DNA from: an uncultured Chlamydiae bacterium
GTDB taxonomy: Bacteria; Chlamydiota; Chlamydiia; Chlamydiales; JAJFMB01
NCBI GenBank assembly: GCA_963696295.1
Contig: CAVOJR010000001.1
Span: forward strand, 3,200,001 to 3,264,000
Direction: 5' to 3'
Length of the DNA: 64,000 bases
The notes under the pieces were generated by a model. It saw only the letters and a program-made list of their open reading frames with translations. It did no database searches and was not told where the DNA came from. This document shows, piece by piece, positions 8,861 to 59,717 of the stretch. How positions within the stretch are numbered: position 1 is the stretch's first letter; the number at the start of each line of letters is the position of its first letter. A program made the translations under genes and the position numbers.

Positions 8861-9430
8861 ATGAGTGCCGTAACACCAAAAACCAGTCTCGACAGCGTGA
8901 TGAGCGCCGAGATGGAGGAGTTGAGCAAACAAAGGCCAAATCTGCTCGCCCTTCTAGATCTGGTGATGATCGTGCAAACGCTCTTTCACGACAAATTTTC
9001 CCAAGTAGAGCGGGACCACTACGCAGGTCTTTTAAATATGCAGCAATCGCAAGTGCAAGTCGTTGTGCTTGGCTATAGCAATTCAGGCCGCATGTGGTCC
9101 TTGCTCCTCGGCGCTGCGGTCAGCACAGGCTGCGGAGTTGCCGGCGGCTATGGCGCTTGGAAAGGATTGGAAGATGTTCAGAAAATGGCCCAATTCGGCG
9201 GCAATCTGGTTAAGCCTTTTGAGGCGTGGAGCCAAATGGCCGGAGATTCCAGACAAGCCACCCAAGAGCAAAACCAGGCCGAGCTGAAGATCATCGAGCA
9301 AAAATTGAGCAATGTGAACCAGGACAGGGCCGATCACGAGAGGCAAACGCAAGCCGCTCTTGAAGCCGGCAAAAGAATTTTAGAATTGGCTCACCAGTTC
9401 TTCCTGCAGTTCCCTGCGGCTTCAACGTAA
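8861..9430 (+). CDS. Putative minor T3SS translocator (CopD/CopD2-like)
   Basis: Operon position, AAGGAG RBS, one hydrophobic Gly/Ala segment and a C-terminal coiled coil. Confidence 0.6.
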   Translation: MSAVTPKTSLDSVMSAEMEELSKQRPNLLALLDLVMIVQTLFHDKFSQVERDHYAGLLNMQQSQVQVVVLGYSNSGRMWSLLLGAAVSTGCGVAGGYGAWKGLEDVQKMAQFGGNLVKPFEAWSQMAGDSRQATQEQNQAELKIIEQKLSNVNQDRADHERQTQAALEAGKRILELAHQFFLQFPAAST

Positions 9431-9541
9431 AGCCTGAAGATAGACTTCAGCCTCACCCCAGGTGAATTTGGCCGGAAAGCTCCTGATCAGTTCGAACAGG
9501 GGCTTTTCGGTATAGTCTGTCAGCGGATAGCTGACGGTGAT
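9406..9541. repeat. Direct repeat DR1, left copy (136 bp; partner 10549..10684)
   Basis: GCAGTTCCCTGCGG...GCTGACGGTGAT reads identically at both sites. Confidence 0.95.
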
Positions 9542-9604
9542 GAGCATGTGGAAAAATTTTATTCAGCAGCCAGAGCGAGCTCTTCAAGAGCACCTCGTTC
9601 GGCA

Positions 9605-10075
9605 TTATATAGCAATTTTTTCGAGGTCCAAATCCAATTCAACGTTTTTTTGATGTTCCGTTGGCGACAAACAAAGCGTTACCAATTCACTGTACAGTTC
9701 ACTAACACGCCTCTTTCCTGCGAGATGACTTATCAGACACAAACGAATATCTTTTTCCGTCCCCATGCTCATATTCGTGTGTCTATCTTTAAAATTTTCC
9801 CATTTAATTACTGTCGGGTGCTTAACCCCGAATCGCTTTGCAAATGAATCCAGAGTCATTCCCAAATAGAGCCGAATAAAGCGTACTTCATTTCCTGTAA
9901 GTTTTGCCTGTTTATGGCAAAGCATCAACGATACAATTTTTTCAAATTTATTATAATTAATATCGGGTACCCACTTCCCCTCGATTTTCACCATAGGAAC
10001 GTGTCGGAGCACTATGGGAAACCCGCACCCATAATCAATAAATCGATCTTGAATTTTCTTTTCCATAACATTCAT
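9605..10075 (-). CDS. Antitoxin-like XRE HTH protein
   Basis: LTGNEVRFIRLYLGMTLDSFAKRFGVKHPTVIKWE helix-turn-helix; coupled to the upstream toxin by an ATGA overlap. Confidence 0.75.
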   Translation of the reverse strand: MNVMEKKIQDRFIDYGCGFPIVLRHVPMVKIEGKWVPDINYNKFEKIVSLMLCHKQAKLTGNEVRFIRLYLGMTLDSFAKRFGVKHPTVIKWENFKDRHTNMSMGTEKDIRLCLISHLAGKRRVSELYSELVTLCLSPTEHQKNVELDLDLEKIAI

Positions 10076-10392
10076 ACTCCAATTTCATACGTTGTTATAA
10101 TGATCATCTTAATTGCTTCATCAAATGATATAAAAACCCTCAATTCCCTGGCGTCCAAGGTTTTTCCACGTATAGCATAATTCCATTTTTGATACGCTTC
10201 ATCAAAATCATCCTGCATTTTCTCATGCCGTCCGTGTAAAAGAACGTATAGAACTTCTTGACGCGTGATATTTCTCTCTTCTTCCCTCTGCTCTAAATGT
10301 AAACAAGATATATATCTTCCTGATTCTATACATTTTTTAACAACATCAAGCAGGCAATCGATCTTTAAAGGGCGAGGGTTCTTGAGCTTCAT
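10072..10392 (-). CDS. DUF4258-like type II toxin
   Basis: HLEQREEERNIT..EVLYVL..G..YAIRGKTLDARELRV..IITTY pattern. Confidence 0.7.
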   Translation of the reverse strand: MKLKNPRPLKIDCLLDVVKKCIESGRYISCLHLEQREEERNITRQEVLYVLLHGRHEKMQDDFDEAYQKWNYAIRGKTLDARELRVFISFDEAIKMIIITTYEIGV

Positions 10393-10548
10393 GTTCTATA
10401 GAAATAGCCTGATAATTATCAATTTCAGTACTACTTTAATAGTAACTGAAGTACATTTTTTTTTGCAACTGGACTTTATTGTCTTTCTTAACCCATTCAT
10501 CCAAAATTATTTACAAATTAAGCTCCGATCAGAATTTCGATATGATAG

Positions 10549-10684
10549 GCAGTTCCCTGCGGCTTCAACGTAAAGCCTGAAGATAGACTTCAGCCTCACC
10601 CCAGGTGAATTTGGCCGGAAAGCTCCTGATCAGTTCGAACAGGGGCTTTTCGGTATAGTCTGTCAGCGGATAGCTGACGGTGAT
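10549..10684. repeat. Direct repeat DR1, right copy
   Basis: Identical to 9406..9541; includes the 3' end of the methyltransferase gene. Confidence 0.95.
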
Positions 10685-58179: not shown

Positions 58180-58358
58180 TCGCAGGCTGTAATTAACTTA
58201 TGATGGCAGCTAAATTTGATGGCTGCAATATCTTTTTCTCGACCAGAGTCTGTAAAAGGCGCTGCGGCAGAAATCCTTTAAGATTCTCGGTAGAGTGCAA
58301 GCCAAAAAAGCGGGCAGGGGAAGTTTCATCTCTTGGCATGTTTTTAGGGTGGACTCGA
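58179..58358. repeat. Direct repeat DR4, left copy (180 bp; partner 59263..59442)
   Basis: ATCGCAGGCTG...GGTGGACTCGA with two mismatches. Confidence 0.95.
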
Positions 58359-58444
58359 ACAAAAGAAGGGCCCATGGGTCTTTTGGCAATTGAACTGCTA
58401 AAAAAAACTCTTAGAAAATGCCATAAGGCGCCATCACTGTCACT

Positions 58445-59056
58445 TCAAAACCCAGCTGAATCAGCCCCCTTATAAGGCTGTTTAAGAATTTCTAAAGCTT
58501 TGTCTATATCCTCAGCCGACACCTGATAAGCTATTCGTTCTCTCTTAGGGTCATAATTATCAACTGTTTCAATTGTAAAGCCTGGATCTGCCGGATTGCT
58601 CCGTAGTCGAACTGTAAAAGAATGACGAGGAGCTATAAAATCAAATATTTTTTCCAATTCCTTAAGCTCAGCCGATCTTATTGGCCCTATTTTGCTATCT
58701 TGAAACCGCTCAATTAAACGCTCTTGCAAAAGCTTCAATTTTCCATGCTTTGCTTTGATTGATTCAATTTCTGTTTCTGTTTCTGTTACTGGAGCCTTTT
58801 CAAATTTTTCTAAAGCCGCCATCAATTTAGGAACATCGTACACAATCACACGAGTTCCTAAACCGGTACTACTCAAATTTGTACCCACTGTTTTAGAATC
58901 CAATTTTAGAACATCTTTCATGAGATTGGAAATGGACTCAGCTTGCGAAGGGTCTTTATAAATCTTGGAAATCTCTTGATTTGATTTTTCTTGCCAATCT
59001 ACCGCTTCATAGCCGAGTCTTGCAGTAAAGTTTTCTAATCTACTAGTTGCTGACAT
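58445..59056 (-). CDS. Hypothetical protein (cargo between the DR4 copies)
   Basis: TAGGAG RBS before ATG 59056; AT-rich. Confidence 0.7.
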   Translation of the reverse strand: MSATSRLENFTARLGYEAVDWQEKSNQEISKIYKDPSQAESISNLMKDVLKLDSKTVGTNLSSTGLGTRVIVYDVPKLMAALEKFEKAPVTETETEIESIKAKHGKLKLLQERLIERFQDSKIGPIRSAELKELEKIFDFIAPRHSFTVRLRSNPADPGFTIETVDNYDPKRERIAYQVSAEDIDKALEILKQPYKGADSAGF

Positions 59057-59262
59057 AACCACTCCTAATTTCAATTTATTAGTGTAAATCAACATTATTA
59101 ATTTGTCAATTATTAACTTATAATTAAGTTACCTAGGGATTGCAAAAAAAATCCTCAAACTTCCTAAGCTACCCTACAACCTTCAGCATTGGGAATAGGC
59201 GCTTTACTGGGAAAGAAGATACATGATAGGAAAAGTTCGGTTTACGAAAGCACCATCAAAGC

Positions 59263-59442
59263 ATCGCAGGCTGTAATTAACTTAGGATGGCAGCTAAATT
59301 TGATGGCTGCAATATCTTTTTCTCGACCAGAGTCTGTAAAAGGCGCTGCGGCAGAAATCCTTTAAGATTCTCGGTAGAGTGCAAGCCAAAAAAGTGGGCA
59401 GGGGAAGTTTCATCTCTTGGCATGTTTTTAGGGTGGACTCGA
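59263..59442. repeat. Direct repeat DR4, right copy
   Basis: Matches 58179..58358. Confidence 0.95.
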
Positions 59443-59717
59443 TGATGTGGGTTAAGACAAATTGGGAGCAAAAGAGGGGGCTCATTGGGGTCTTTTGGCA
59501 ATTGAATCTCTTTGTGGGCTTTGGGCCATCGGTAGGCGAGCCGGTGAAGCTTCGGTCCGGAAAACGTCCTTGGCTTTTCTAACATTTCTAAGAGATGCTT
59601 AATGAGGAGGAGCCCGAACTCGCGAAAGAAAAAAATAGAGATTTTTGAAATGAAAAATGCGATTTGTGAGGAGTTCAACCCGCTTGGGTTGGACGACAAA
59701 CAAAGTGCATTTTTCAT
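59277..59717 (-). CDS. Possible hypothetical protein whose 3' end is duplicated in DR4
   Basis: 146-aa ORF; no motif recognised. Confidence 0.3.
   Translation of the reverse strand: MKNALCLSSNPSGLNSSQIAFFISKISIFFFREFGLLLIKHLLEMLEKPRTFSGPKLHRLAYRWPKAHKEIQLPKDPNEPPLLLPICLNPHHRVHPKNMPRDETSPAHFFGLHSTENLKGFLPQRLLQTLVEKKILQPSNLAAILS

Follow-up and report, generated by a model that had tools for sequence, protein, structure and literature searches.

We analysed a stretch of 64,000 nucleotides from the genome of an uncultured Chlamydiae bacterium (contig CAVOJR010000001.1, positions 3,200,001 to 3,264,000; hereafter the window), in which four blocks of inserted DNA, here called cargo, each lie between two direct copies of a long piece of the target. 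These scars are real, they are found throughout the genome, and they are a variant of a known scar, the insertion with long target duplication (ILTD), which Nobusato et al. are said to have reported in 2000. The best explanation, to which we give a probability of about 0.58, is that the recombination of the host itself produced them, incoming DNA with homology on one side only having been closed into a circle and taken into the chromosome by a single RecA crossover. The genome amounts to 3.43 Mb and is 97% complete; the window lies on a contig of 3.30 Mb (C1), the second contig having 135 kb (C2). A congeneric genome was sought among 31 genomes and none was found, and the best named relatives of the gamma-lyase encoded in the window belong to two uncultured chlamydiae, at 66% identity.

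Four scars in the window

A first-pass annotation of the window had described four pairs of direct repeats around unrelated cargoes. All four pairs were found where it had placed them, each in two copies only in the 3.43-Mb genome. The length that it gave for the repeat of site 1 (136 bp) stands, and the repeats of sites 2, 3 and 4 proved longer than it had them (371/353, 436/410 and 402/321 bp) once their decayed fringes were included. Its labels for the cargoes hold, namely a DUF4258 gene with a weakly MqsA-like antitoxin, a toxin scrap with a PF26541 gene, and an orphan, and scans of the window cargo proteins with Pfam, NCBIfam and PADLOC agreed with it in finding no integrase or transposase; restriction-modification families were also unmatched.

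Site 1
8861..9430, plus strand: left flanking gene, last of a type III secretion chaperone/translocator-like operon, with its last 8 codons and stop inside repeat copy 1
9406..9541, plus strand: repeat copy 1, 136 bp, holding the live end of the left gene and a dead methyltransferase 3' piece
9542..10548, no strand: cargo, 1007 bp, GC 0.37, a toxin-antitoxin-like pair
9605-10075, minus strand: HTH gene of the cargo, weakly MqsA-like antitoxin (TIGR03830, E=1e-6, under the family cut-off)
10072-10392, minus strand: DUF4258 gene of the cargo (Pfam)
10549..10684, plus strand: repeat copy 2, 136 bp, 100% identical to copy 1
10565..11242, minus strand: right flanking gene, class I SAM methyltransferase, intact (Pfam)

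The duplication at site 1 is the only clean one of the four, with 136/136 positions identical and sharp ends in a gapped alignment. The joint between repeat and cargo lies 16 nt past the methyltransferase stop, and the GC content of the cargo (0.37) is well below that of its flanks (0.50). The DUF4258 protein found no match in the plasmid collection. The genes at 6943-9430 of the window comprise a SycD/LcrH chaperone (gene 7477-7965) with translocator-like neighbours, and relatives keep them in the same order with the methyltransferase and mgtE.

Site 2
34070..35221, plus strand: anchor gene, cystathionine gamma-lyase/synthase family, with its last three codons and stop supplied by the cargo
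34839..35209, plus strand: repeat copy 1, 371 bp, live (gapped alignment)
35210..35952, plus strand: cargo, 743 bp, GC 0.35, with an 84-aa ORF, a toxin scrap and an immunity-type gene
35286-35540, plus strand: 84-aa ORF of the cargo (ORF call)
about 35540-35611, plus strand: polymorphic-toxin C-terminal scrap of the cargo, ~25 codons, preceding the immunity-type gene
35592-35930, plus strand: immunity-type gene of the cargo (PF26541)
35953..36305, plus strand: repeat copy 2, 353 bp, dead, with a 333-bp identical core and an 18-nt deletion in its left fringe

The altered end of the gamma-lyase, which the annotation had pointed out, is confirmed at site 2, and the dead copy runs into a different end of two codons and a stop, unlike the cargo-derived end of the live gene. 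Cargo and flanks again differ in GC content (0.35 against 0.48). One joint of this site was seen in separate data, a 151-bp contig from a soil metagenome matching 35904-36054 with zero differences and thus bridging the cargo and copy 2, at a depth of 2 and from a run possibly related to the source sample. The contigs listed bridge none of the other seven window joints, at very low depth and with sites 1 and 4 outside the stretch to which the read contigs were aligned. Three soil runs contain 6-10% of the words at a contig depth of 2-4, and parts that they leave uncovered are uninformative.

Site 3
41358..42521, minus strand: left flanking gene, MFS transporter, intact, with its 5' part inside repeat copy 1
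42189..42624, plus strand: repeat copy 1, about 436 bp, holding the live MFS 5' part and the dead 3' end of the 433-aa gene
42625..53774, no strand: cargo, 11.15 kb, with ORFs of 180, 284, 1435 (DUF3638) and 1042 aa and a glycoside hydrolase-like gene
51944-53524, no strand: glycoside hydrolase-like gene of the cargo (Pfam)
53775..54184, plus strand: repeat copy 2, about 410 bp, holding the dead MFS 5' part (26 nt deleted) and the live end of the 433-aa gene
54144..55445, minus strand: right flanking gene, 433 aa, no family, intact (ORF)

Sites 1 and 3 share one arrangement, in which copy 1 passes on into the left-hand gene, copy 2 passes on into the right-hand one, and on the far side of the cargo each leaves a dead piece of the other's gene. 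The cargo of site 3, whose GC content (0.45) is close to that of its flanks (0.47), starts with a 104-bp scrap from the middle of a gene (42618-42721); the scrap matches a RecB-like nuclease/helicase gene of the 135-kb contig at 88% identity, so that the non-anchored end lies inside a foreign gene, with the joint over an imperfect match of 5 of 7 positions; this end is probably a random break. Short contigs from two studies match the cargo at 98-100%. The 1435-aa DUF3638 protein (44377-48684) has five chromosomal paralogs at 20-27% identity. Homologs of the 433-aa gene occur in 2 other genomes of 151, in neither case beside an MFS gene.

Site 4
57232..58179, plus strand: left flanking gene, polysaccharide pyruvyl transferase, intact (Pfam)
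57993..58394, plus strand: repeat copy 1, about 402 bp, with the live gene end, a 180-bp core and a decayed right fringe
58395..59185, minus strand: cargo, 791 bp, GC 0.36, with a 216-aa orphan ORF at 58445-59095
59186..59506, plus strand: repeat copy 2, about 321 bp, with a dead gene end full of deletions, a 99% core and the native right side

The annotation had each repeat include a gene end, and at site 4 this needs qualification, as the 180-bp core of 99% identity lies past the stop of the pyruvyl transferase gene and the gene end sits in the decayed fringe. The cargo has a GC content of 0.36 against 0.44 in the flanks, and its orphan has no relative in a set of 564 candidates of similar length and no Atlas match. 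Sites 2 and 4 both show ragged deletion fringes around a core that is 99-100% identical, which suggests later recombination between the copies. The region between sites 3 and 4 (54144-58179) is a low-GC glycosylation cluster made of the 433-aa gene, two GT25 genes and the pyruvyl transferase gene; one other genome (G106) has a pyruvyl transferase directly before the 433-aa homolog, which indicates that this flank is itself patchy and rearranged.

The scar throughout the genome

The annotation had left the extent of the pattern to a self-comparison of the genome, and this comparison carried it well beyond the window. Unique two-copy repeats lying 200 bp-20 kb apart were direct in 69 cases and inverted in 3. 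Curation by eye started from 40 candidates and the four window sites; a first cut, removing tandem paralogs, dispersed-repeat pairs and two integrase islands, left 35 sites, a second left 32 after removal of a nested 38-bp fragment, a piece of an adjoining event and an IS91 remnant, and the final cut, of an islet at a tRNA-Ser gene, left 31. Twenty-eight of these are spread along the chromosome and three lie on the small contig. Their repeats range continuously in length from 42 to 915 bp (median 149) at identities of 88-100%, and their cargoes measure 0.55-11.2 kb, with GC below that of the flanks in 29/31. Outside the window the cargoes include AbiE pairs, an MNT-HepT pair, an addiction antidote, a PIN gene, Schlafen-domain, ankyrin, RING and MYND proteins and many orphans; insertion sequence (IS) genes lie within the cargo at C1:880702 and at C1:1545153/1551910.

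The two copies of a repeat do not decay evenly. Across the 31 sites, gaps fall on the cargo-facing half in 25/40 cases for copy 1 and in 28/34 for copy 2 (p=2e-5), the pattern that a duplicated target with dead inner halves would leave. This polarity, and the empty order at site 1 in a genome of the same family (see below), support the view of the annotation that these are true target duplications. Two sites (C1:2694942-2702392 and C2:101352-107366) look more like eroded tandem duplications, one dead copy at each aligning with several separate pieces of the live region. The dead copies of the 35 sites have a high indel load, with 78 indels against 272 substitutions, 54/78 of the indels being of at least 4 bp; microhomology at the small deletions is not above random (mean 0.81 vs 0.73), and such deletions would be compatible with end joining.

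No common signal was found at the joints. A junction motif, which the annotation had suggested looking for, did not appear, with no k-mer enriched at 64 repeat/cargo joints or at 64 target ends (the best case was reached in 21/300 shuffles). There is no unique inverted pair of at least 25 bp at the sites, the cargo ends are unrelated, and none of the 31 sites overlaps a tRNA.

Joints at stop codons and allele-like differences between copies

Examination of the distance between the repeat/cargo joint and the stop codon of the live gene revealed a strong association. The stop lies within 4 nt of the joint at 8/31 sites, where 0.8 would be expected, or 1.1 for gene-sparing targets with a stop; within 15 nt at 14/31 (3.5 expected); and within 30 nt at 17/31 (6.7 expected). 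Simulations reached the observed anchoring in 0/20,000 cases, and manual curation preceded this test except for the last four rows removed. As a control, cargo-free tandem arrays that overlap stops were anchored in 0/31 cases, with 2.4 expected, and so gave no sign of intrinsic breakpoints at stop codons. Selection alone does not explain the anchoring, because the sequence past the stop stays intact in the other copy, and neither does erosion, because several anchored sites are 96-99% identical.

Homology that ends at a stop codon is instead the appearance that two alleles of one gene with different neighbours would have. Three anchored pairs have different stop codons at the same position in their two copies, and site 2 has two different short C-termini, as two selected alleles would give. 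Differences between copies are synonymous in 96/200 cases, compared with 39-43% under decay alone (p 0.007-0.08, depending on the assumed transition bias), and nonsense changes number 1/100 where 5.3 were expected (p 0.03).

Tandem arrays with a period of at least 40 bp are abundant in this genome, which has 93 (27 per Mb) compared with 0-15 per Mb in nine sampled relatives and 47 in one; 23 of the 93 span a gene 3' end and 3 a 5' end.

Relatives and empty sites

Empty gene order was seen in relatives for 2/35 sites, under chance sampling and by comparison at the level of family or order; for the remaining sites the sample contained no informative relative. In a genome of the same family (L013) the translocator-like gene lies 1 nt from the methyltransferase stop with no cargo between them, corresponding to site 1, and in another (L113) leuS and rnr are adjacent. 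In the genome studied here, C1:3066789-3068471 holds a sodium:alanine symporter gene of near-host GC between duplicated 5' ends of leuS and rnr. A metagenome scan with the methyltransferase gave 207 pattern matches and no relative.

A filter applied to pieces of 20 kb passed 44 raw cases in 3.28 Mb here; in ten further genomes of the order, of which 2.4 Mb was taken, it passed 17, most of them being paralogs, tRNA pairs or dispersed repeats on inspection. Plausible cases in the relatives were 3-5/17, and the filter recovered 21 of the curated ones here (tRNA-Ser islet included). The densities are thus ~6 per Mb here vs 1-2 per Mb in relatives (p 0.002-0.012), as compared by manual curation among related genomes. 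The scar seems to be present in other chlamydiae and to be denser in this genome. Divided by the status of the end-joining protein Ku, the raw passes in relatives were 4 in 1.0 Mb where it was positive, 8 in 1.2 Mb where it was not found and 5 in 0.2 Mb where it was partial.

Recombination machinery and mobile-element remnants

RecA, ComEC, Ku and an end-joining ligase are encoded in the genome. Ku, which adjoins a ligase-only end-joining enzyme at C1:810006-811609, occurs in 19/151 genomes of the order and was not found in two genomes of the same family. ComEC is required for DNA uptake in Chlamydia trachomatis (PMC6686042). The annotation had suggested a search of the genome for co-occurring enzymes; this search yielded Ku and the ligase, but neither the LigD polymerase domain nor a reverse transcriptase, RVT_1 (PF00078) having no match in the 97%-complete genome, with the control positive in 3/14. 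RecT and ERF were not found in the genome either. Tyrosine recombinases are encoded at 7 places, all outside the sites. Two integrase islands are intact, at tRNA-Thr and tRNA-Tyr, with repeats of 46 and 54 bp, and the tRNA-Ser islet, with a repeat of 49 bp, is integrase-free.

Broken IS91-like transposase remnants are also present, together with 14 copies of a conserved 17-bp motif, often in closely spaced inverted pairs, at C1:948-985 kb, 413-444 kb and 2695 kb and at C2:38.8-39.3 kb. The motif, which we take to resemble IS91 origins, suggests from its copies a non-autonomous element family. As an origin of the sites it was discarded, as it stands at the joint of 1/35 only (C1:948018, 3 nt away) and at none in the window.

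Origin of the scars

To account for the scars by host recombination, we propose that the incoming DNA, mostly from a close relative, would bear part of a gene shared with the recipient, usually the 3' part up to the stop codon, and that the cargo would be whatever adjoins that gene in the donor. With homology on one side only, the fragment would be closed into a non-replicating circle, and one RecA crossover within the stretch held in common would bring the circle into the chromosome. The outcome would be the order gene, cargo, stranded gene fragment, with the length of the repeat set by the extent of the homology. Selection would keep insertions that spare genes and purge those that split them; afterwards substitutions and small deletions may erode the dead inner halves, the core may be kept identical by exchange between the two copies, and cargo of toxin-antitoxin type may resist loop-out, against which the many toxin-antitoxin cargoes point to selection. 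In E. coli conjugation with one-sided homology, 56/60 clones carried duplications, of 109-950 bp in 14 that were sequenced, and these arose by re-circularisation and a single crossover from an engineered substrate (PMC3240628). The one recurring, integrase-free and host-dependent process that the annotation had envisaged is supported by our results, and of its three options the Campbell-type integration is the best. Widely staggered nicks and target-primed synthesis do not fit repeat lengths of 42-915 bp, the absence of a junction motif and the lack of an RVT_1 match.

Several observations weigh against such an origin. The anchor gene was beside the cargo, as in the order expected of a donor, in no sampled relative, none of which is congeneric, and neither a circle nor an empty allele appeared in the reads, whose depth is very low. 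Neither DprA nor the LigD polymerase domain was found in the genome, and the four Ku-positive relatives, few and non-independent genomes of which 1.0 Mb was sampled, gave no convincing case, which indicates that Ku is not sufficient. The synonymous excess is modest and not clearly greater at anchored sites (58/112 vs 37/83), and missense changes between copies are no more conservative than neutral ones (p 0.31). Finally, 14/31 sites, among them window sites 3 and 4, lie more than 30 nt from any stop, and these would need a chimeric circle or a donor already carrying the insertion.

The same donors could have acted with no circle, a linear strand with homology at one end being joined illegitimately upstream on the sister chromosome and the resulting dimer resolved by Xer; this would amount to homology-facilitated illegitimate recombination (HFIR) in reverse, or else to an unequal joining of sisters in which foreign DNA is the filler. 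Such a route ends in the same layout as the circle, ComEC is present, site 3, the sole joint with a visible relative of the donor, shows imperfect microhomology, and transformation triggers unequal crossing-over in pneumococcus (PMC3784515). We nevertheless hold it to be unlikely, since HFIR generally gives an insertion with a deletion, in E. coli the duplications arose from circles and were found 10 times more often (PMC3240628), and DprA was not found. Still less should be expected of a dedicated enzyme acting in trans, be it a widely staggered nickase, a restriction nuclease, a rolling-circle IS91-like transposase or a target-primed polymerase. ILTDs were first tied to restriction-modification genes (PMC2853133), the IS91-like remnants with their motif near one joint would supply a candidate, and the microhomology-free deletions hint at blunt end joining; yet the continuous range of repeat lengths, the lack of k-mer enrichment at joints or target ends, the unmatched RVT_1, RecT, ERF and LigD polymerase and the presence of the IS91-family motif at the joint of a single site, outside the window, all speak against it, and it leaves unexplained the different stop codons of the two copies.

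Explanations that dispense with incoming homology fare worse. Tandem duplication followed by erosion, with the cargo as a native neighbour whose second copy was deleted, would suit a genome so rich in tandem arrays, and fits the two sites noted above in which several separate pieces are matched. It is improbable as a general account, however, as erosion cannot yield what is seen at sites 1, 3 and 4, where copy 1 runs on into the left gene but copy 2 into the right side, as site 1 is empty in a relative, as 29/31 cargoes are GC-poor and as tandem arrays are not stop-anchored. That the sites are decayed integrase islets, their repeats being att duplications and their integrases lost, seems very improbable: the two intact integrase islands and the integrase-free tRNA-Ser islet show that such elements exist in the genome, but 0/31 sites overlap a tRNA, some 30 different integrases would be needed, and the repeats are mutually unrelated and far longer than the 46-54 bp of true islands. 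An artefact of assembly has next to no probability, even though outside data bridge 1/8 window joints, because the copies differ by polar deletions and synonymous changes at identities of 88-100%, that one joint is confirmed in separate data, and relatives have the empty order.

A more speculative view, which we think rather doubtful, is that this lineage has machinery of its own that makes ILTD its main route of gene gain, through a minimal Ku and ligase that circularise incoming DNA or through breaks coupled to translation termination. If true, this would account for the stop anchoring, a density roughly three to five times that of sampled relatives and the microhomology-free deletions; any gene end would be an integration site with no integrase, and the 25-year-old puzzle of ILTD would receive a named mechanism.

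Other features of the window

Two families of short dispersed intergenic repeats occur in the window (36733-36844, 55525-55683, 5559-5605 and 59603-59735), one of them with inverted ends; about ten further copies of these repeats occur elsewhere in the genome. The single Rfam match in the window is a tRNA; a tRNA at 26671-26752 lies within the 5' part of a 291-aa ORF that was called mechanically and probably begins further downstream. A 105-bp array lies within a 1992-aa ORF (window 25509-26040).

Comparison with known systems

The annotation had presented the scars as a candidate undescribed mechanism, a claim that gives way before ILTD, which has the same layout, length range and bias toward gene ends (PMC2853133). 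By the definition given there, an ILTD insert measures <20 kb, lacks mobile-element genes and is flanked by long duplications of variable length; the repeats, of 25-423 bp (Table 3), have no further copy in the genome and often cover a start or stop site, which leaves the target gene intact, and the mechanism is given as unproven. The sites described here resemble them in a variable target duplication of >30 bp (136-436 bp in the window, 42-915 bp over the 31 sites), in window cargoes of 0.74-11.2 kb without integrase, transposase or phage genes, and in window repeats none of which has a third genomic copy. They differ in cargo, which is of toxin-antitoxin, immunity, orphan and effector-like type rather than restriction-modification, making them a variant; in their number, 31 in one genome, and in their occurrence in Chlamydiae; and in the tie of the joint to the stop codon itself, which is not so reported in the main-text parts of PMC2853133. 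Our literature search, which mostly lacked subscription papers, found no report of the scar in chlamydiae or of stop-codon anchoring.

This is a useful clarification and no new kind of element. Cases in print are scattered and deal mainly with restriction-modification genes, and some 30 events of graded age in one genome permit statistics; cargo need not be a nuclease system, and repeats that end at stops, with allele-like copies, suggest relatives as donors and plain single-crossover integration. If this is true, gene ends would be universal landing sites, and many chlamydial toxin-antitoxin and orphan genes may arrive without any mobile-element enzyme and be missed by island finders based on integrases.

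Integrase islands share with our sites direct repeats that restore the end of the target gene, and differ in that the sites have no integrase, tRNA target or shared core. HFIR is alike in having one homologous anchor, one illegitimate joint and no dedicated enzyme, and unlike in that it generally deletes recipient DNA, which the sites here duplicate (PMC3240628, PMC5361080). The insertion-duplications of E. coli are closer, as one-sided homology there gives gene, insert and partial duplicate of variable length (PMC3240628), although the substrate was engineered and here we infer the intermediate from scars. Unconventional circularizable structures and the microcin H47 island, with its imperfect repeats of 148/144 bp, likewise have long direct repeats, no recombinase of their own and a dependence on host recombination (PMC7843796, PMC3191183, PMC5426353). 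The circularizable structures are recognised by the excised circles detected for them, and their cargo is mostly resistance or microcin genes, whereas our sites are known from sequence; by analogy, these structures and the H47 island would be the same layout seen from the side of excision.

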